Made by a program: the position numbers and the translations under genes
In this document: piece after piece, positions 25,989-42,728 of the stretch
Position numbering within the stretch: the stretch's first letter is position 1
How the letters are laid out: each line of letters starts with the position of its first letter
The notes under the pieces: model-generated
Seen by the model: only the letters and a program-made list of their open reading frames with translations
The model's database searches: none
Told to the model about the DNA's origin: nothing
IMG/VR virus record: IMGVR_UViG_3300032225_000976
Location: 1-43,807 of that record
Strand: one strand, 5' to 3'
Source of the DNA: a virus
Lineage: Duplodnaviria > Caudoviricetes
Length of the DNA: 43,807 nt

Positions 25989-27908
25989 ATGCTGACGAGA
26001 TGCTGTCAATCGTGCTGCACATGGGGTGATTGCCTGCACGGACCGAACATCGAGGACGGATGCTGCCATGCGTGCGACATGCTCGCGCTGTGGTGCAAGC
26101 GCCCTGCGGTGTCGATCCAGCAGCACTACACGCTCGGGATGCCTGTCAACTGCGAGACCTGCTACACCGAGTCGTTCGCAGAGATGCCGCCCGTGCAGGC
26201 GCTCTACAGGTACTACAAGTCGTTCTACCGCTGCGTGTTTCCCGATCCAGCCGGCGGAATCCTGTCGCTGCTCGACAACCTTCCCGACGAACCATGTCCC
26301 GATCCCGCGTGCGAGACGGGGTACGACGACTGCTGCGACAAGAACTTCAACAGCTTCGACTGCCAATGCAACGGCTGGTTCGCCGATGGCATCGGCGGTC
26401 TCTCGACATGGCGGCGCGAGCAGTTGTGGGCTGACGACGCAAGCAAGTGGTTCATCGAGTCGTTCTGCTTCGCGAATGGCCTGTCGCTCGGTGGATCGGC
26501 ATCGCTTGGTCGCCTGAGCGGACAGCTCCTCGCCATCGTCTATTTCGAGCGATGGTGGAAGATCGCCGAGGACTGCGGCGAGGCAAAGATCGTTGTCCCT
26601 GATTGCCCAGGCGGCGAGTGCGGCGGCGTTCCGTACCAGACCGACGACCTCGTGCCGCGCTGGTGGATCTACGCCTGTAGCGGCGTTCCGCTCTACGATT
26701 TCGAGATCGACGACGCTGTGCGCTTCGGCGTTATCACCGCGAAAGATGCGGAGATTCTCCGCATCGACATCTCGATGCGCGTGCAGCCCGACCAGATCGT
26801 GCTGAAGAAGCTCGCGGAGGCTGGATACCTCCAGGCGCGCGACTGGCGTGCCGAGCAGCGGCAGGCGTACATCGACCTCGACACGCGGTTCCCCGGCGCT
26901 GGCTACGACGCTTGCATCGAGAATGTCGAGGACATGCACACGCTTGGGCCGTTCCGCAAGCGGCTCACCGAGCCTGTGGTCGGCACGAGCGTCGATCCGC
27001 TGATGAAGAAGAGCCACATCGTCACGGAGTCAGCCGCGCTGCAAGCCGACTGCTTCATCCCGTACCCTGGCAGCTCGACCGATCAGACTGACTACGACTA
27101 CTGGTCGGAGCGTCAATGGGTCTACTTCCGTGGCGTGCCGGGCGGATGGACATGGGCGGGTTGGAACGCTCCGTCCGATGGCGACTGCCTTGGTCTCGGT
27201 CTCAACGAGGAGGACGCGATCCTTCGAGGCTGCGGGCGCAACGACCAGTCGTGCATCGAGGCGTTCAAGGGCAACCCGCGACCAAGCCCCACATGCGCGC
27301 CATGCTCGACCATCAATTCCGCGCTCACGCCGTGCAACCATTGCACGGGCGGATGCGACGAGTGCGGCATCACGGCTGCTGTTCAATGCGCCGACGACAA
27401 CACTCCCGTGACGACGAAGTGCCAGAACTTCACCATCGTGCCGTCATGCGAGGGCATCCGCTTCATCTACGCCGAGTACAGGGTCAAGAACGAATACACC
27501 TTCAACATCGGATCTGGAGAGTTCGAGCAGACCCACAAATATGTCTGCTACCAGTCCGTCGCCTCGTACCTGACCGAGGTGAAGCGCAGCGTGAACTCGT
27601 GGGACAGCGCGATCCCGTTCCAATGCCGCACGGAGTCGCCCGCGCTGCCTGCGTTCCATGCATGGGACGAGATCGAGGGCGGGCATGTCGGTCATTCGGG
27701 CATCTGCAACCCGCTCTCCGCCGGCGACTTCTCCCAGTACACGAACGCGGATCTGTGCGCGGGCGGCATCTGCTACGCGGAGGAGTTCTGCCCGATCCCA
27801 TGGCCGCTGACTGGCGAGCGGAACAACGCCGCAGCGGACACCGACTGCCCGCCGCATTCCACGACAGAGCAGGTCGCGTGCATCGGGCATACGATCGACT
27901 GCCCGTAA
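25989..27908 (+). CDS. Cysteine-rich protein, 639 aa (about 46 Cys), function unknown
   Basis: Long ORF with phage-typical codon usage, GAGG RBS, CC/CxxC/CxC clusters. Confidence 0.85.
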   Translation: MLTRCCQSCCTWGDCLHGPNIEDGCCHACDMLALWCKRPAVSIQQHYTLGMPVNCETCYTESFAEMPPVQALYRYYKSFYRCVFPDPAGGILSLLDNLPDEPCPDPACETGYDDCCDKNFNSFDCQCNGWFADGIGGLSTWRREQLWADDASKWFIESFCFANGLSLGGSASLGRLSGQLLAIVYFERWWKIAEDCGEAKIVVPDCPGGECGGVPYQTDDLVPRWWIYACSGVPLYDFEIDDAVRFGVITAKDAEILRIDISMRVQPDQIVLKKLAEAGYLQARDWRAEQRQAYIDLDTRFPGAGYDACIENVEDMHTLGPFRKRLTEPVVGTSVDPLMKKSHIVTESAALQADCFIPYPGSSTDQTDYDYWSERQWVYFRGVPGGWTWAGWNAPSDGDCLGLGLNEEDAILRGCGRNDQSCIEAFKGNPRPSPTCAPCSTINSALTPCNHCTGGCDECGITAAVQCADDNTPVTTKCQNFTIVPSCEGIRFIYAEYRVKNEYTFNIGSGEFEQTHKYVCYQSVASYLTEVKRSVNSWDSAIPFQCRTESPALPAFHAWDEIEGGHVGHSGICNPLSAGDFSQYTNADLCAGGICYAEEFCPIPWPLTGERNNAAADTDCPPHSTTEQVACIGHTIDCP

Positions 27909-27920
27909 GGAGAGACCACG

Positions 27921-28319
27921 ATGGGAGAGTATTACCGAACGAACAAGGTCCACGGCGCGCGCGACTCGAAGAAGATGGACGCGCCGAAGGCGAAGCTGAC
28001 CGTCGAGAATGTCGGCAGTTACCTGAGCGCGGAAGCAAGCCTGCAATTGCGCGGTCCCGTCTCGGACGAGGTCTTCGAGCTGCGGAAGGCGCAATGCGTG
28101 GCGTGTCCATCGCGCGCGCTCTCGGACAACCTTCCCGACGAGATCGGCTACTGCAAGTCGTGCGGCTGCGGCGTGAGCGAGCGCGCACGCCTGACCGTCA
28201 AGCTGACGATGCCGAAGACCAAATGCCCGCTCGGCAAGTGGGGCGAGGCGGAGGGTCGTCGCCCCAGCACGATCGAGCAGGCGAAAGAATGGATCGCAAA
28301 GAAGATCCTAGGCGCTTGA
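27921..28319 (+). CDS. Cys-motif protein (CxxCP...CxxCGC...CPLGKW; DUF6171-like)
   Basis: CVACP, CKSCGC and KCPLGKW; AAGGAG RBS. Confidence 0.75.
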   Translation: MGEYYRTNKVHGARDSKKMDAPKAKLTVENVGSYLSAEASLQLRGPVSDEVFELRKAQCVACPSRALSDNLPDEIGYCKSCGCGVSERARLTVKLTMPKTKCPLGKWGEAEGRRPSTIEQAKEWIAKKILGA

Positions 28320-28344
28320 CACCATCAAACGAATCACATACAGT
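28316..28344 (+). promoter_or_regulatory. Sigma70-like promoter
   Basis: TTGACA-17 nt-TACAGT at the start of the recombination/replication module. Confidence 0.7.
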
Positions 28345-28359
28345 TCCGACCGAGCCACC

Positions 28360-28404
28360 ATGAACGCAGTACGGAACACCCCCCGCCTCTGTCACCGCCT
28401 GTAG
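28360..28404 (+). CDS. Possible 14-aa leader peptide MNAVRNTPRLCHRL
   Basis: GAGCCACC-ATG; runs over the 5' strand of the RNA stem. Confidence 0.3.
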   Translation: MNAVRNTPRLCHRL

Positions 28405-28462
28405 CCTCACGGCTGGGTGGCTCCTCGCTATGCGTTCCAGCGCGGTGACAGAGGCGTTTCCG
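28372..28462 (+). ncRNA. Candidate structured regulatory RNA (C4/CI-like architecture) carrying an anti-RBS segment
   Basis: Perfect 15-bp stem 28384-28398/28442-28456, inner hairpin agcc-tcac-ggct, single-stranded GGTGGCTCCT at 28416-28425. Confidence 0.6.
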
Positions 28463-28476
28463 AAGAGAGATCAGAC

Positions 28477-29292
28477 ATGTCGAAGGTAGAAATCGTCAGG
28501 GGAATGCCCGCAACGCAGTATCACTCGCTGCGCGCCGCATCGTCGTCTCGCCTCAAGGCGATCCTCCGCAGCCCGGCACACCTCAAGCACATGGACGAGA
28601 ACGGTCTGACCGCCGACGCGCTCGCTCTTGGCGAGGCTGTCCACACGGCGGTCCTCGAGCCTCACCGCTTCAAGGACGACTACGGCGTCGCTCCCCGCGT
28701 TGACAAGCGCACGAAGGAAGGCAAAGCGGCGTGGCAGATGTTCGTGGACGCGAACCCCACCGCCACGATCATCAACGAGGACGACTGGCTTCAGATCACG
28801 GGCATGGCTCGTGCGATCCAGTTGCACCCGTCCGCGATGGATCTCGTCAACGGTCGCACCGAGACCGAGGTCAGCCTGTTCTGGAATGAACTCGGGATGC
28901 GCTGCAAGGCGCGCCTCGACGGCTACAACCTCGACTCGCGCTGCCTGATCGACATCAAGACCACGCAGGACGCGAGCCGCGACGGCTTCTCGAAGTCGAT
29001 CGCCAACTTCGGATACCACATTCAGGCGGCGTGGTACATCGACGCGGCGCGCGCCGCCGGCTTCGATGTCGAGGGCATGGTCTTCGTCGCCGTCGAGAAG
29101 ACCGCGCCTTACGGCGTGGGCGTGTACCTGATCGACGACGCATCCGTCGATGAGGGTCGCCGCCAGCTTGCGCGTGCGCTCCCGCTCCTCGCAAACTGCG
29201 AGGCTACGAACACCTGGCCGTCCTACGACGATTCCGTCCAGACCATCTCGCTGCCCCGCTGGGCTGTGCGAGGAGAGGAGATGTCCCTTTGA
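28477..29292 (+). CDS. recE: RecE/exonuclease VIII-like PD-(D/E)XK nuclease (DUF3799)
   Basis: SSSRLK...GEAVHTAVLEP...CKARLD...IDIKTT...YHIQAAWY...FVAVEK; next to Bet. Confidence 0.88.
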   Translation: MSKVEIVRGMPATQYHSLRAASSSRLKAILRSPAHLKHMDENGLTADALALGEAVHTAVLEPHRFKDDYGVAPRVDKRTKEGKAAWQMFVDANPTATIINEDDWLQITGMARAIQLHPSAMDLVNGRTETEVSLFWNELGMRCKARLDGYNLDSRCLIDIKTTQDASRDGFSKSIANFGYHIQAAWYIDAARAAGFDVEGMVFVAVEKTAPYGVGVYLIDDASVDEGRRQLARALPLLANCEATNTWPSYDDSVQTISLPRWAVRGEEMSL

Positions 29293-29585
29293 GTGAATTC
29301 AAGGATCATTTCCGCGAAGCGAAATCGAACCTGATGAAGGGCTACATCAAGATCGACATCGATCAGGATTCCGAGCATGGGGATGTTCTGTACGCACACC
29401 TCAACACGGATTCCTTTGGAGTCGATGACGAACCACGCATTGAGCTGATGACGAGGGATCAGGATGACGCGGATGGATGCGATCGTGTTTGGATCGTGAG
29501 CGTGAGCATGTTGCGGAAACTTTGCGATGCCGTAGAGGCGCTCCATTCCGCAGCCAACATCAACTTCAAGAAGACGGGAGCCTGA
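29289..29585 (+). CDS. Hypothetical protein, 98 aa
   Basis: GAGGAG RBS; coupled TTG start. Confidence 0.65.
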   Translation: MSEFKDHFREAKSNLMKGYIKIDIDQDSEHGDVLYAHLNTDSFGVDDEPRIELMTRDQDDADGCDRVWIVSVSMLRKLCDAVEALHSAANINFKKTGA

Positions 29586-29586
29586 A

Positions 29587-29802
29587 ATGACGATTAAGAC
29601 GAAGATGGAGACTCTGAAGAACGCCGATTGGGACCAGCTTGAGAAGGATGTGGTCATTCGCATCAAGGCGCTTCGGGTGCTTGTTGCCAAGACGGATTCC
29701 GATGCCGTCAACGATGCGATTGCCAATGACCTGATTCTTCCGAACATCTCGCTTCTCGCCGAGTTCTGCGAAAGCATCGACATCGATGGAGGTGGCAATT
29801 GA
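29587..29802 (+). CDS. Hypothetical protein, 71 aa
   Basis: GGGAG RBS; operon context. Confidence 0.7.
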
Positions 29803-30704
29803 GCCAACTCGCAACCATCAATCTCGACGACACCAAGGTCGCGCTGATCAGCCGCACCATCGCAAAGGGCTGCACGCCCGACGAACTCGAACTCTTCATC
29901 GCGATCTGCAAGCGGACGGGACTTGATCCCTTCGCCCGGCAGATCTACGCCATCCGCCGCTGGGACAGCCGCGAGCGCCGCGAGGTCATGCAGACGCAGG
30001 TCTCGATCGACGGTGCGCGCCTCGTGGCGCAGCGGTCGGGCGAGTACGCGGGGCAGGACGGTCCCCATTGGTGCGGCGAGGACGGCGTGTGGAAGGATGT
30101 GTGGCTGCAATCGAAGCCGCCCGTCGCCGCCCGCGTCGGCGTCGCCCGCCGTGGCTTCGTCGCCCCGCTCTACGCCGTGGCGCTGTTCTCCGAGTACGCC
30201 CAGCGCGGCAAGGAAGGGCAGTTGACGGGCATGTGGGGTCGGATGCCCGTGGTGATGATCGCCAAGTGCGCCGAGATGCTTGCCCTCCGCAAGGCGTTCC
30301 CCGCCGAGCTGTCGGGTCTCTACAGCGCCGAGGAGATGTCGCAGGCGGACAACACGCCCGCCGCTCCCTCGTTCCATGCCCTGCCGACCGCCCAGGAAGC
30401 CCCGCAGGGCGATCCTGAGATCGACAAGGCTGAGGAGGAGGCGATCCGCGCCGAGGCGGCAGAGCGAATTCCTGAGCCGAAGGCGGCGAAGACGCTGACC
30501 AAGGCGGAGGCGACTGGGCTGATGAAGGCTCTTGCCGCGAAGGCGATCCCGTTCGAGGATCTCGTCGCCGCCATGAACAAGGCTGGGCTTGCCGGCGGAC
30601 CCGAGGTGACCTCGTGGCCCGCCGAATGGAAGCCCCGCATCCAGTCGTGGCTGAAGGGTCAGAAGTCCCGAGCGCCCGAGGCGAGCGTGGACGAGACCGC
30701 CTGA
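29799..30704 (+). CDS. bet: Bet/RecT-family single-strand annealing recombinase
   Basis: [41 protein letters not shown] and [16 protein letters not shown]. Confidence 0.92.
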
Positions 30705-30720
30705 AATATTTCTACCTCTG

Positions 30721-30753
30721 TGCGGTGTGGGGGGAAACCCCTGCACCGCATTT
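30721..30753 (+). terminator. GAAA-tetraloop hairpin, probable terminator after bet
   Basis: tgcggtgtggggg-gaaa-cccctgcaccgca followed by ttt. Confidence 0.65.
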
Positions 30754-30835
30754 CACCGTGAGTCCTGACGCCTACTGAAGATACAGAAGGCGATGTCAGA
30801 AACCCCATAAAAACATGGGTTCGCATCAAGGGATA

Positions 30836-30872
30836 TTGCCACTAATGGAAAAACTTCTACCATTAGTGGTAA
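30836..30872. promoter_or_regulatory. Inverted repeat (operator or origin) overlapping a putative promoter of the RepL-like gene
   Basis: ttgccactaatgg...ccattagtggtaa; TTGCCA-16-TACCAT lies inside it; AAGGAG follows. Confidence 0.6.
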
Positions 30873-30882
30873 AGGAGCGGAC

Positions 30883-31308
30883 ATGCGAAAGCAGATCGTC
30901 AATCTCGATGCCAGCACAGGGCAGATTATGGACGGCATCGTCGCCTACATTCAGCCGAGGCGACAGAACGCTTTTGAAGGATGGGTAGCCGTGGCACAGA
31001 CCGCATTGCAAGAACTGGCGAAAAGCCATCTGACTGGGACCGACTTCCGCGTACTCATGGCGTGCCTCGCGCGTCTTGAGTGGAAGAACATGCTTCCGAT
31101 GCACCAGACCGCGATGGCGCAAGAACTTTCACTTTCTCCAAGCCATTTCAATCGGAGCTTGAAGAAACTGATTGACTTCGGAGTCATTGAGAAGCAAGTT
31201 GACTCTGGCGTTCGTCTGTATAGACTGAACCCGCACTTCGGATGGAAGGGCAGCGCCAAGCATCATCGCGAGGCTGTGTCCGGCAGACTGAGGCTGCACC
31301 AACCCTGA
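30883..31308 (+). CDS. repL: RepL-like winged-helix plasmid replication protein
   Basis: STGQI, WVAVAQ, QTAMAQEL..SHFNRSLKKL HTH and YRLNPHFGWKGSAKHH; lower GC than the genome. Confidence 0.7.
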   Translation: MRKQIVNLDASTGQIMDGIVAYIQPRRQNAFEGWVAVAQTALQELAKSHLTGTDFRVLMACLARLEWKNMLPMHQTAMAQELSLSPSHFNRSLKKLIDFGVIEKQVDSGVRLYRLNPHFGWKGSAKHHREAVSGRLRLHQP

Positions 31309-31363
31309 TCTTTTCCCCCATGTCCCTGTCGTGCTAGTTGCGCGGCGGGGATTTTCTTTCGCC

Positions 31364-32086
31364 ATGACCGAACTAGCACTTACCAATGTCGAAGTGAACC
31401 GCCTCGAATCCCTCGAAGAGATGATCTCTCGTGGGGCCAAGGCGTTCTTCGAGGTAGGCATCGCCCTCACGGAGATCCGCGAGAGCAGGCTCTACCGCGC
31501 CCAGTACGACACCTTCGAGCAGTACTGCCTCGAACGGTGGAACTTCACCGCCGCACGCGGTCGCCAGCTCATGGGCGCAGTCGAGGCGATCGCATCGCTT
31601 CCCGACGAGATGCCGAAGCCGTCGAACTCCGCCCAGGCATCCGCGCTAGCCGGCGTACCTGAGGACAGGCGCACCGATGTCTGGAGCGAAGCCGTCCGCA
31701 TGGCTTCCGACGAGAACCGAGCGCCGACCGCGCGCGACATCAGGGAAATCGCGGAATCGCTCGAGGATTCCTCGGAAGTTGACGAATGGTCCGACGGCAT
31801 CTCGATCGGCGAGGCGAACATCAATGTCGTCAAGCCGATCGTGAAGCAGCTCATCGCCGTACTCAAGGAAGCGACGGATCTCGCCGATGGACTCTCGAAG
31901 ACCAGCGCGAAGGAATGGATGCTCACGGGAGGCTCGTCGCTGCTCAAGCACATCCGCGATGCGCGCGACCATGTGAACGCATCCAAGCCGGCGGGAATCT
32001 GCCCAGAGTGCAGCGGCAACGGATGCCGCAAGTGCTTCGACACGGGATGGCTCAACGCAACCCGTATGTCTATGCTGAAGAAATGA
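31364..32086 (+). CDS. DUF3102-like protein with C-terminal Zn finger
   Basis: FFEVGIALTEIRESRLYR..YDTFEQYC..RW motif; CPEC..GCRKC. Confidence 0.7.
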   Translation: MTELALTNVEVNRLESLEEMISRGAKAFFEVGIALTEIRESRLYRAQYDTFEQYCLERWNFTAARGRQLMGAVEAIASLPDEMPKPSNSAQASALAGVPEDRRTDVWSEAVRMASDENRAPTARDIREIAESLEDSSEVDEWSDGISIGEANINVVKPIVKQLIAVLKEATDLADGLSKTSAKEWMLTGGSSLLKHIRDARDHVNASKPAGICPECSGNGCRKCFDTGWLNATRMSMLKK

Positions 32087-32340
32087 ACACTCTGACGATC
32101 CTGGCGCGCGTACACGAACGCCTGTCCGTCATGTACGGGCATCCGATGCCGTATGAGATCGCGGAGATGAAGAGGATCATCGTCGTCGGTCTGTCGAGGG
32201 AACTCGCGGATGCCGACTTCGACCATATGTCGTCCCTGACATGCGAGACACCCGAGGAGGTGCAGCGCATGTGGAGGCAATGGCGGCACATGGCTGTCGA
32301 TGTCAGGAACTTTTGGATCAGGCTAGTCACCGAGCAATAG
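32083..32340 (+). CDS. Hypothetical protein, 85 aa
   Basis: ATGA coupling; fills the gap before the helicase. Confidence 0.65.
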   Translation: MNTLTILARVHERLSVMYGHPMPYEIAEMKRIIVVGLSRELADADFDHMSSLTCETPEEVQRMWRQWRHMAVDVRNFWIRLVTEQ

Positions 32341-32349
32341 GAGCCACCT

Positions 32350-34014
32350 ATGAAGCTGAGGCCGTATCAGGACGCGGCGGTGCAGGGCATCTGCGACCGA
32401 CTCCGCGAGAACCGTTCTACCGTCGCCGTGCTTGCCACGGGGCTTGGAAAGACCGTCATCTTCGCCAAGGCGATCGAGATGTCGTTGCAGATGCCAGGTC
32501 GCCGCGCCATCGTCCTCGCCCACCGCGAGGAGCTGATCACGCAGGCTGCGAAGAAGGTCGAGCAGGTCACGGGGCTGGGTGTCGCCATCGAGATGGCTGA
32601 CCTCCGCAGCATCGAGGACGGCTTCAGCCGACCGTCCGTGATCGTGTCGAGCATCCAGACGCAGAATGCCGGGCGAGGCGACTGGCGGCGGATGCATCGG
32701 TTCAGCAACAAGCACCCGTGGTTCGTGGTCGTGGACGAATGTCACCACGCCGTCAGTACATCGTACCGACAGGTCATCGACCACTACATGGCGCACCCGC
32801 AGTCGCGGATGCTCGGCGTGACCGCAACGCCAGACCGCCTCGACAGCAAGGCGCTCGGTCAGGTGTTCGACAGCGTGGCGTACCAGTTCGATGTATCCAA
32901 TGGGATACGCGAGGGCTGGCTCGTCCCCGTCAAGCAGCGGTTCGTCACCTGCGACCATCTCGACTTCAGCGCGGTCGGCAAGTGTGCCGGCGACTTCAAG
33001 CTGAACGACCTTGAGGAGGCGCTGGAGAAGTCGTTGCAGGAGATGGTCGTGCCGATGGTGCAGATCGTCGGCAAGCGCCGCACGCTCGTGTTCGCCGCGA
33101 CGGTGAAGCACGCCGAGCGCGTGTGCGAGATCCTCAACCGTCCCGGCATGAACACGGGAGTTGCGGCGATGGTCCACGGCGGCACGCCGAAGGAGATCCG
33201 CCGCGACATCTTCCGAGCCTACGGAGAGGGCAAGTACCAGTACCTCGTGAATGTCGCCGTCGCGACCGAGGGCTGGGACGATCCCGCGATGGACGGGCAG
33301 GGCGTGCAGGTCATCGCCATGATGCGACCGACGCAGAGCCGCGCGATGTACTGCCAGATGCTCGGGCGGGGAACGCGAACCCTTCCAGGCGTGATCGACG
33401 GCATCGACGACGCGCGCGAGCGCCTTGCCGCCATCGCGTCGAGCAACAAGAGCCACATCCTCGTGCTTGACTTCCTCGGCAACAGCGGTCGCCACACGCT
33501 CGTCCACGCGGGCGATGTGCTTGGCGGCGACATGTCCGAGCCGGCGAAGAAGCGGTACAAGAAGGAATCCGAGAAGAAGGGGGTTCCCGAGGAGATCGAT
33601 GTCCTCGCGGAGCTGGACCATGCCGAGATCGAGCAGAAGAAGGCGGAGGAGGCGAAGCGCCGCCTGCATGTCGTCGGCAAGGCGAAGTTCTCGTCGCAGG
33701 AGATCGACCCCTTTGAGGCGCTCGGCATCGTGCCGAAGAGCGTTCCCCATTGGCAGCGCCGCATCCCCGCGTCGGAGAAGCAGCGCGGGATGCTCGAACG
33801 CTCGGGGCTGAAGCTGCCGAAGGATCTCGACACGGGCCGCGCAAGCCAGTTGATCGAGGTGCTGATGTCGAAGGCGACCGACAAGCAGGCATGGGTGCTT
33901 CGCAAGGCTGGCATCGACCCAGCGGGTCTTGACCGCAAGAAGGCGAGCGCGGTGATCGACCTCATCAAGAAGGGCGATCGAGAAAGCGCAAGCAAGCTTG
34001 CAGCAACCCGTTGA
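32350..34014 (+). CDS. SF2 DExH helicase (ResIII/YejH-like)
   Basis: LRPYQ, ATGLGKT, DECHH, TATP and QMLGRGTR. Confidence 0.93.
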   Translation: MKLRPYQDAAVQGICDRLRENRSTVAVLATGLGKTVIFAKAIEMSLQMPGRRAIVLAHREELITQAAKKVEQVTGLGVAIEMADLRSIEDGFSRPSVIVSSIQTQNAGRGDWRRMHRFSNKHPWFVVVDECHHAVSTSYRQVIDHYMAHPQSRMLGVTATPDRLDSKALGQVFDSVAYQFDVSNGIREGWLVPVKQRFVTCDHLDFSAVGKCAGDFKLNDLEEALEKSLQEMVVPMVQIVGKRRTLVFAATVKHAERVCEILNRPGMNTGVAAMVHGGTPKEIRRDIFRAYGEGKYQYLVNVAVATEGWDDPAMDGQGVQVIAMMRPTQSRAMYCQMLGRGTRTLPGVIDGIDDARERLAAIASSNKSHILVLDFLGNSGRHTLVHAGDVLGGDMSEPAKKRYKKESEKKGVPEEIDVLAELDHAEIEQKKAEEAKRRLHVVGKAKFSSQEIDPFEALGIVPKSVPHWQRRIPASEKQRGMLERSGLKLPKDLDTGRASQLIEVLMSKATDKQAWVLRKAGIDPAGLDRKKASAVIDLIKKGDRESASKLAATR

Positions 34015-34058: not shown

Positions 34059-34256
34059 ATGGCGAAGAAACTCGTTGCGAAGCGGAACTACACGGCGGTC
34101 ACCATCGATCTTGAGTCCTATGCGTTGCTCACTCGGATCGCCGACGAGGTGTCGAAGGAGTGGGGCTACCGCGTCAGCCGCAGCGACATCGTCCGCATGG
34201 GAATCACGGCGCTTCAGACGAGGCGCTTGCACACCAAGAAGGGAGCCACCAAATGA
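34059..34256 (+). CDS. Ribbon-helix-helix DNA-binding protein
   Basis: TAVTID-ESYALLTRIA-SRSDIVRMGI; AGGAG RBS. Confidence 0.7.
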   Translation: MAKKLVAKRNYTAVTIDLESYALLTRIADEVSKEWGYRVSRSDIVRMGITALQTRRLHTKKGATK

Positions 34257-37881: not shown

Positions 37882-38420
37882 ACCTGTGGCTTCCGCAGGA
37901 CGGAGCCGACCTGTCGATCTACAAGAGGATGCTCATGTCGGGCGCGATCAAGCCGTTCGAGATGCCCAAGGGCATCGAGCAGCTCGCGCAGCATGTCATG
38001 CAGATGATGGAGATGGCGCAGGCGAGCGGGCGCATCCGAGACGCGATGAAGTGCGCGGAGATCCTGCGCCACCTCGCGGCGGACAACCGATCGATGGCCG
38101 TGGAGATCGACCGCATCGACCGACTCGACGCGGGCAAGCCCACCACTATCTCGTCGCAGGTGTCGCCCGATGTACAGGACCGCATCAAGCGGATCGTCGC
38201 AACGCAGAAGGCACGGTCCGTCTCAGCGAATACGGAGGCAGCGTCAAATGAGCGAGGTCACGCGGACGGTTCGGGCGATCCTCTTGGCGCAGTCATGCGT
38301 CGAGAGCAATCAGCCTCTCAAGCCAGCGGTGGTGTCGATCCTGCTGGACGAGATCATGCGGCTGCGGAGGCAACTACAGGCGAGCGAGCGTCGGATAGCC
38401 CGACAGGAGCCGCAGGATGA
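37878..38420 (+). CDS. Helical hypothetical protein, possible displaced terminase small subunit
   Basis: GGGGAG then GTG; RLDAGKPTTISSQV tail; the function is a guess. Confidence 0.55.
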   Translation: MNLWLPQDGADLSIYKRMLMSGAIKPFEMPKGIEQLAQHVMQMMEMAQASGRIRDAMKCAEILRHLAADNRSMAVEIDRIDRLDAGKPTTISSQVSPDVQDRIKRIVATQKARSVSANTEAASNERGHADGSGDPLGAVMRREQSASQASGGVDPAGRDHAAAEATTGERASDSPTGAAG

Positions 38421-38860: not shown

Positions 38861-39139
38861 ATGGCACGATTCACCGAGCAGCTCCGACAGATCCTCCACT
38901 TCTATGCCCGCGCCGGCGCGACGGATGTCTCGCAGACCGATATCGCCGATGCGCTGTCCCGCAACCGCGCCACGATCCACGCCCATTGCGCGCGGCTCGT
39001 TGACCTGAAGTACCTCGCGCGGCTCGACTACGGTCGCTACGAGATCACGGCTGCGGGACGCTCCGCGCTAGAGCGCCGCGCCGGCAGCGCCGCCAAGTTC
39101 GTCAAGTGTCCCGACTGCGGACGCAAGATCTTCCTCTGA
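38861..39139 (+). CDS. Winged-HTH DNA-binding protein with C-terminal CxxC
   Basis: SQTDIADALSRNRATIHAHCARL..YEITAAG; KCPDCG. Confidence 0.75.
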   Translation: MARFTEQLRQILHFYARAGATDVSQTDIADALSRNRATIHAHCARLVDLKYLARLDYGRYEITAAGRSALERRAGSAAKFVKCPDCGRKIFL

Positions 39140-40841: not shown

Positions 40842-40855
40842 TGTGTGGCTCCTAA

Positions 40856-41206: not shown

Positions 41207-41297
41207 TGTGTGGCTCCTATTCGGTCCGTATTCGTTCAGGGCGACGGTCGCCCGCACCGCGCACGGTCGCATCGTGCGCGTAGCGGAGGATCGGCGG

Positions 41298-41915: not shown

Positions 41916-42118
41916 TGTGTGGCTCCGTTGGCGTTGATCAGAATCGAAGAGATCTGATCAAAAGTCTTGGCGAATCCTGCGTGCATTTCCGAATTGATCG
42001 GAGATGTAAATCGCAGGCAAAAGGCGTGATATTCGGAATAGCCCTTTGCGTACTCCGCCGCCTTTTGCAGGGCATTTGCCAGCTCTACTGGAATGGTGAT
42101 CGTCACATTGTCTTGCAT
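41912..42118 (-). CDS. Hypothetical protein, paralogous to the C-terminus of 41298-41915
   Basis: AGGAGCCACACAATG start; VTITIPVELANALQKAA versus TVITMPRDLADQLRKAA. Confidence 0.75.
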   Translation of the reverse strand: MQDNVTITIPVELANALQKAAEYAKGYSEYHAFCLRFTSPINSEMHAGFAKTFDQISSILINANGATQ

Positions 42119-42142
42119 TGTGTGGCTCCTCTCGGGGTTCAA

Positions 42143-42349: not shown

Positions 42350-42728
42350 GGCGGCTCCAATCTGCGACCGAGTCGCGGTGTTGGGAAGATAGCAACACTA
42401 TCGACGCAGTCAAGTACTACACTTGAGGGAATCTGTAGCGAATTCGGTCCGTATTCGCGTATGCGCGGGCATGGCAGGGACTTACGAGCAGCAATAAATA
42501 TTGCGCCGATCCGTGAACGCTCCAATCGGCTTGCAAATCCCACTAGGCGCGCCCGTAGCCGGCGCGGCGCTCGGCGGCGGCGTGATCATCGGCAACCGAG
42601 CGTGTGCGTGCGGCGCGCCTATACACGCGCTCGCGTATGGGGGCGCACCCGCGCGCAGCGGCAGCACGCAACGCACGCGCCCGCGCGCGCCCGCACGGAA
42701 ATCCTGAGCTCGACATCCGCGTCTCTGG

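Follow-up and report, generated by a model that had tools for sequence, protein, structure and literature searches.

A conserved stem-loop ahead of phage recE carries a loop complementary to a tag at the start sites of non-structural genes

The stretch of DNA analyzed here (the window) is the whole 43,807 nt of IMG/VR record IMGVR_UViG_3300032225_000976, a circular record with a 123-bp terminal repeat and a G+C content of 61%. Structural genes extend from the terminase (2272) through 28319 and are followed by rightward genes that include recE, recT, a helicase, a methylase, a primase-like gene, and rusA. Then comes a leftward operon of small ORFs whose last gene encodes a 252-aa serine recombinase, with a resolvase domain as the only domain detected, and the operon's own sigma-70-like promoter suggests that it is expressed early. 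The element described here occupies the gap between recE and the last structural-side gene, and its parts and principal neighbors are as follows.

28316..28344 (+): sigma-70-like promoter, from a scan; promoter-like hexamers in 10/10 elements
28352..28359 (+): a1, tag copy in the leader (GAGCCACC) that complements the loop core; GCCACC invariant in 10/10
28362..28368 (+): b1, second leader element GAACGCA, complementary to b'; cognate matches across lineages
28376..28381 (+): conserved ACACCC linker preceding the stem, in 9/10 elements
28384..28398 (+): long stem, 5' arm; perfect 13-18 bp stems (G-U allowed) in 10/10
28403..28414 (+): small inner hairpin, from the fold; missing in four short-loop lineages
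28416..28425 (+): a', core GGTGGCTCC(T), complement of the start-site tag; 9 nt invariant in 10/10
28431..28437 (+): b', second antisense segment TGCGTTC, complementary to b1
28442..28456 (+): long stem, 3' arm, from the fold
28477..29292 (+): recE-like exonuclease (exonuclease VIII, DUF3799), first gene after the element; phrog_412, E=6e-87; PF12684
32350..34014 (+): helicase gene; phrog_16
42386..42413 (-): sigma-70-like promoter of the leftward operon, from a pattern match

An earlier note, made from the letters of this DNA, had described a TTGACA-17-TACAGT promoter driving a leader that folds into a perfect 15-bp stem. Both features hold up: the promoter at 28316-28344 matches the consensus at 10/12 positions and is the only such site in 27000-30500 (0.5 expected), and folding recovers the stem at 28384-98/28442-56 (z = -3.0; 1/200 shuffles as good). 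Promoter-like hexamers lie 6-9 nt upstream of GCCACC in 10/10 elements and the start site is predicted at ~28351-52, so the transcript would begin at a1. The reported leader matches to the two unpaired segments are likewise present, at 28352 and 28362, and GGTGGCTCCT is found at 28416-25. This last segment had been described as single-stranded; its position is right, but it is not predicted to be fully unpaired, a UGGCU loop closed by GG/CC pairs being predicted within it. In the predicted stem-loop fold, 2-5 pairs close the UGGCU loop, the third of them kept as A-U, G-U, or U-G in 9/10 elements, and UGGCU is the sole open part of the core in most relatives. Unpaired probability along the window's core ranges from 0.0 to 1.0, with 0.4 across most of the middle, and opening the core is predicted to cost 3.0-6.2 kcal/mol. 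The idea that the TCC of the core has no partner in cis was dropped, the CC of the core supplying closing pairs in cis, and the CACC of the ACACCC linker is able to pair with the core GGUG. Only three U follow the 3' arm, with the recE start 20 nt later, and at least five U occur within 8 nt after the stem in only 2/10 elements, making the stem a poor intrinsic terminator; no intrinsic terminator was listed on the plus strand. A 14-codon ORF (28360-28404, +) begins right after a1 in the window and terminates within the stem-loop; a leader peptide at this position was rejected as not conserved, most relatives having no ATG behind a1. No tRNA or tRNA-like gene was found by ARAGORN (0 hits) or by Rfam, and a T-box, a tRNA mimic, and a Chi-like site were all rejected, their remaining parts being missing.

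Searches with RecE led to a clade with DNA available, at 51-60% identity. The element precedes recE in all nine distinct relatives found and was present in 12/12 close loci first examined, to which L351 and L355 add near-duplicates, giving 10 distinct element versions with the window included. In all 10, recE lies 13-21 nt downstream of the stem and the core GGTGGCTCC is invariant. Stems of at least 13 bp occur in 10/10 distinct close upstream regions compared to 2/133 distant ones, counted after dropping loci with <260 bases upstream and collapsing duplicates. Anchored at the outer end, the 5' arms are on average only ~48% identical, with that of the window 40-60% identical to the others at best register, yet every stem pairs; these statistics come from our own script and carry some uncertainty in register. 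Because arms this divergent always pair while the core does not change, the stem is kept as structure and the core as sequence. RNAalifold, run on MAFFT alignments, missed the stem, as the arms are too diverged for alignment. Our covariance model (R1) has just 6 pairs and little power in distant searches, and it finds no homologue in the 80 listed loci searched out of the 120 in viral contigs that carry an a'+b' pattern. A leader+loop pattern matches 64 viral loci, with L152, L174, and L185 the only true members among the matches listed, and a promoter pattern matches six, comprising four members and two tRNA-like genes. In the tRNA-like genes (L352 10001-10113 and L353 10001-10112), the acceptor stem GCCACC / GGTGGC followed by TCCA has the letters of a1 and the core, which is probably a coincidence.

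No integrated copy of a close relative was seen among the relatives found. One close relative sits in an actinobacterial genome bin (G002), in which no 16S gene was found; its contig is a terminally repeated circle, and 61 genomes around this bin gave no match except that contig. Helicase relatives at 40-53% identity occur in 8/301 genomes of the class to which a bin titled Phycisphaeraceae belongs, and these matches, taken with the circular form of the actinobacterial-bin relative, weakly suggest that the window phage infects Phycisphaerae. A 16S match was found in 208 of these 301 genomes, and the 30 tails read from this likeliest, putative host class were all canonical (30/30); the unpublished genome G295, part of the 301-genome draw, is counted in these host-class tallies only.

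The leader and loop of the element appear to be matched to one another within each lineage. Six lineages have a long interior, and in all six b1 finds a 5-7 nt cognate match in the second segment, whose lineage-specific letters follow those of the leader. The other four, which lack b', have a short interior, and there the a1:core helix is lengthened by 3-5 pairs instead. Cognate leader-loop combinations score 70 compared to 49.5 +/- 4.5 in 200,000 permutations that ignore relatedness, and cognate pairing is also favored in each of the two groups taken separately (p=0.022, 720 permutations; p=0.042, 24 permutations). Duplex energies for whole leader against whole interior did not favor the cognate pair in most rows. 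When the RNA is truncated before the 3' arm, a1 is predicted to fold onto the core in 10/10 elements, and in the predicted full-length fold the a1:core helix is gone in 10/10; only nested structures were scored, a pseudoknot with both helices lying outside the scoring. This covariation supports pairing between leader and loop in cis.

The complement of the loop is a short tag at ribosome-binding sites (RBSs), found in the window at the following places.

29577..29582 (+): short tag GGAGCC before a 71-aa ORF at 29587, from the start-site count
32339..32348 (+): helicase RBS tag, the most conserved candidate target, in 8/8 lineages
34242..34250 (+): tag before a 36-aa ORF at 34253, by match
38406..38413 (+): wobble tag GGAGCCGC before rusA (38417), by match
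40845..40852 (-): tag before leftward ORF 40841, by match
41210..41217 (-): tag before leftward ORF 41206, by match
41919..41926 (-): tag before leftward ORF 41915, by match
42122..42129 (-): tag before leftward ORF 42118, by match
42351..42358 (-): wobble tag before the first leftward ORF (42349), by match

The exact complement of the loop at the helicase RBS (32339-48), the further start-site matches, and the wobble sites at rusA and 42349 are thus all where the earlier note had placed them. In the genome-wide count that it had proposed, GGAGCCAC occurs 7 times in the window against 1.95 expected (1/100 shuffles), with six copies directly before ATGs (32350, 34253, 40841, 41206, 41915, 42118) and the seventh being the loop itself on the other strand. 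In an unbiased count over eight records (G005 left out as a duplicate of L267), with genes called by our own simple gene caller, GGAGCCAC was the top 8-mer, present at 21/193 non-structural starts but 0/182 structural starts and found in all eight records. Among GGAG-led starts in nine records, GGAGCC is used at 35/128 non-structural and 1/79 structural starts; for the window by itself the figures are 9/20 and 0/9 (p=0.027), or 6/20 and 0/9 for the full tag (p=0.14). As the records are related, pooled p-values are overstated. Full tags number 1-6 per record, and G001 has only one among its 20 non-structural calls. The helicase is tagged in all eight lineages for which its start is available (the L271 and L273 sequences do not extend to the gene), once as the G-U variant GGAGCCAT, and the helicases of G007 and G008, both without the recE region, are tagged in addition; among 10 distant helicase loci, the tag was present in 0/8 with an aligned start. 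The RBS of recE itself has GGAGCC in three lineages. Leftward tags read GGAGCCACAC, with a ninth base that mismatches the loop in every lineage. Given the canonical 16S tails, the CCAC of the tag is not accounted for by rRNA pairing, and a motif that reaches beyond 16S pairing and stands at non-structural starts is a start-associated sequence in the sense used in the part of Pope et al. drawn on here (PMC3203893). Two further observations concern individual sites. The helicase RBS of the window (32337-32351) can fold into a 5-bp hairpin, with AGCCA as its loop, over the Shine-Dalgarno sequence and part of the start codon; G001 and G006 have a hairpin of this length in different letters, and the other lineages one of 1-3 bp. 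In the terminal region of contig C349 of G002 (L378-L380), AGGAGCCGAACC stands before the starts of three rightward small genes and AGGAGCCGACAC before that of one gene; both are tag variants with a shorter match.

Several comparisons bear on whether the loop acts on these sites in trans. Relatives keep the stem, the loop, and the helicase tag together; a stem retained without loop/RBS complementarity, which the earlier note had named as evidence against its proposal, was not seen. Its suggestion of looking for covariation between loop and RBS motif yielded no compensatory change, since core and tags are both invariant, which makes covariation impossible. By hand tally, 8/16 core-flanking positions pair with the helicase site, where ~6 are expected. 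In the 14 nt upstream, 7/19 tags and 12/111 controls have a match of at least 5 nt to the segment on the 3' side of the core (p=0.005 in this post hoc comparison), and for such upstream b-type matches cognate RNAs had no advantage over non-cognate RNAs (p=0.068 and 0.35). Of 61 window starts, the seven that rank highest as predicted partners all belong to tagged genes, a ranking that is partly circular as it largely restates the sequence match; class-wide duplex-energy tests were not significant (p 0.05-0.40). In four genomes, the predicted-partner rank of the helicase tag is 1st, 1st, 2nd, and 5th. The proposal of an anti-Shine-Dalgarno RNA with many targets is partly supported: the tag is confined to non-structural starts, but the covariation seen in cis does not extend to lineage-specific pairing at the trans sites. 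The argument for trans action is one of parsimony: the parts that pair only in cis (stem, b, and the extension of a) change freely, unlike the nine bases with a match in the tag. These data point to a conserved RNA element with good comparative support, for which a multi-target role is plausible.

We favor, with a probability of roughly 0.55, the reading that the element gives rise to a self-masked leader RNA, resembling P4 CI and P1 C4, that represses the tagged genes. The promoter at the head of the recE-recT-helicase run would most likely fire early, and in the nascent RNA the 5' end (a1, plus b1 or a longer a1) would mask the core. Completion of the long stem would then expose the UGGCU loop, as the fold predicts, and with the leader displaced or cut off, a stem-loop of 50-75 nt could accumulate. 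Pairing would begin between the loop and AGCCA, the GG/CC pairs would open, and a duplex of 8-11 bp over the Shine-Dalgarno sequence and spacer would block translation. In this way the helicase and the early genes of the leftward operon would come under delayed negative feedback, a timer in lytic growth, with immunity only a side effect, given a carrier state. Intergenic hairpins (30704-30883 and 31308-31364) and promoter-like sites (30836 and 31199) lie between recT and the helicase, and given these the transcript of the element may not reach the helicase unbroken.

Among the alternatives, the strongest holds that the element works in cis only, as a folding switch or attenuator of the recE operon, and that a phage RNA-binding protein reads GCCAC at early RBSs and in a1; the loop would be invariant because a1 must remain a binding site for that protein. 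Every covariation found does lie in cis, the two folds are mutually alternative, the AC-rich tail, kept identical among the leftward tags, is not explained by the loop, and Pope et al., in the part covered, allow the reader of such sequences to be RNA or protein (PMC3203893). We nevertheless judge this account unlikely: a1 lacks the GG of the tag in 10/10 elements and its GA as well in four, the loop matches the tag over its full length, the stem with its few trailing U would terminate poorly, and both an extra putative protein and a second mechanism are required. Less probable still is that the helicase RBS is the single real target, making the element a close analogue of C4 and CI, and that the other tags are copies that recombination has spread between small early genes and that are complementary only incidentally. 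The universality of the helicase tag alone (8/8), its high predicted ranks, its 5-bp mirror hairpin with letters that differ between the window and G001/G006, the single identical 14-mer shared by the four window leftward tags, and the scarcity of tags in G001 would all fit; against this, tags precede different leftward ORFs in G002, G004, G006, G007, and G008, four relatives are tagged at rightward genes other than the helicase, and structural starts are free of the 8-mer (0/182). That the tag is simply a Shine-Dalgarno style preferred by host or phage, with the loop match following from a1 as an old leader-peptide RBS, we consider very improbable: phage RBSs are generally GGAG plus an AC-rich spacer, and a1 precedes the 14-codon ORF in the window, but structural genes avoid the tag, the 16S tails are canonical, and most relatives have no ATG behind a1.

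The earlier note saw no clear CI repressor gene; the window does contain a candidate, a winged-helix ORF at 38861-39139 (+) that matches Pfam MarR_2 with E=1.2e-5, below cut-off. This ORF is conserved at 51-62% in 6/10 records searched, is convergent with and overlaps the recombinase gene, and has just upstream of it one copy of an operator-like or stoperator-like repeat, CGAATACGG, which occurs six times in the window against 0.29 expected.

38227 (+): CGAATACGG repeat
38838 (+): CGAATACGG repeat
39697 (+): CGAATACGG repeat
40153 (+): CGAATACGG repeat
41226 (-): CGAATACGG repeat
42449 (-): CGAATACGG repeat

Its 8-nt core is present in 5-8 copies in each of four relatives, some inside coding regions, and is palindromic in the leftward region as well as occurring just before the conserved winged-helix gene. 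A half-site or palindrome also precedes some leftward starts and the leftward promoter, and the sequence is unrelated to that of ESAS, the inverted repeats found upstream of a subset of start-associated sequences. The gene and its repeats look like a protein repressor with operators, so the RNA need not stand in for a repressor, and we read the element as a candidate for delayed feedback rather than as the main immunity system.

C4 (Rfam RF01695) has two short antisense segments with upstream copies, labelled a1 and b1, and the element resembles it in having two such segments, although b' is missing here in 4/10 lineages. C4 acts on icd and ant, whereas up to nine starts are tagged here. The likeness to C4 and CI proposed in the earlier note is apt as to layout and does not extend to membership of an Rfam family: covariance models for C4 and CI gave 0 matches at E<=1 over the whole window, and at E<=10 the interval 28250-28550 gave only three chance matches, all unrelated. 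As in those systems, a complementary site lies upstream in the same transcript, as seen in the covarying leader-loop pairing and the nascent fold, and another lies downstream in the same operon, the helicase tag, on what would be a single transcript. In the portions of the literature consulted, P1/P7 C4 is an RNA that acts in trans to repress genes of the operon it belongs to (PMC8546580, PMC10695390), the names of the c4-a1b1 motif are given (PMC2864571), the C4 precursor is an RNase P substrate (PMC4919922), and P4 CI RNA lies in the leader of a replication-gene operon with complementary sites up- and downstream (PMC4825925). The element is like P4 CI, with its seqA and seqC, in lying in the leader of a replication-gene operon with sites on both sides in the transcript. 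P4 CI causes premature termination of its own transcript, whereas here the downstream sites are RBSs, lie up to ~10 kb off, and occur also in a second, oppositely transcribed operon. Host small RNAs such as RsaE and 6C/B11 pair through an exposed C-rich anti-Shine-Dalgarno loop with many RBSs; their loops mimic the 16S tail, whereas the loop here would pair with a tag private to the phage and be covered by the 5' end of its own RNA. Antisense RNAs of P1, P4, P22, and lambda act on one gene or operon in the literature consulted, and a 2025 review of phage small RNAs describes no such case in the part covered (PMC12197685). Our literature search found no description of an RNA like this one, nor did the supplement of PMC10690425, files 1, 2, and 4 aside, hold a match. 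If the favored reading is true, a phage RNA that reads a shared tag over two operons would represent regulon-level control without a protein, and its self-masking 5' end suggests a built-in delay that could be useful in designed RNA switches.

The tag also resembles the start-associated sequence (SAS) of cluster K mycobacteriophages and cluster EF Microbacterium phages, which the parts of the two accounts used here describe as an RBS-position motif with AGGAG, confined to non-structural genes and extending beyond 16S pairing (PMC3203893, PMC7302621). Both are RBS-position motifs at non-structural genes that reach past 16S pairing (judged here against the tails of a putative host class), and the cluster K consensus likewise contains GGAGCC; the tag differs in being 8 nt rather than 13, in having fewer copies, and in the presence of a conserved complementary hairpin. 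As the reader of SAS is called unknown in the relevant parts of papers from 2011, 2024, and 2025, this clade offers a candidate RNA with comparative support for that question. Pope et al., in the part covered, note one reverse-orientation SAS in four K1 phages (PMC3203893). The right part of Anaya has 16 forward copies and one reverse copy (L390 34871-34883; record 59870-59882), the latter forming the 10-nt loop of an intergenic hairpin, and this interval has matches in 186 phage records. In 10 records examined, the anti-SAS loop was kept in three (Anaya, Validus, and LilPharaoh), divergent and C/U-rich in three, and absent from four. The reverse SAS of Adephagia, examined separately (L448 886-895), lies in the gap between genes 92 and 93, where late transcription appears to begin, according to the part of the published account used here (PMC11373665). 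The parallel is real for four K1 phages rather than cluster-wide, and the K1 anti-SAS loop also resembles the 16S tail. A broader proposal, that a private RBS code over a gene class is read by one self-masked hairpin RNA, with the K1 reverse SAS as an independent case and thus the missing SAS reader, is tentative and somewhat doubtful. The K1 parallel brings the SAS question into a laboratory host, Mycobacterium smegmatis, and existing RNA-seq from it puts late transcription in that gap. The cluster K interval itself (L390 34730-35000, L398-L406) is a conserved multi-hairpin region with invariant blocks, folding with z = -6.2 in Adephagia, and is possibly an undescribed late-leader RNA.
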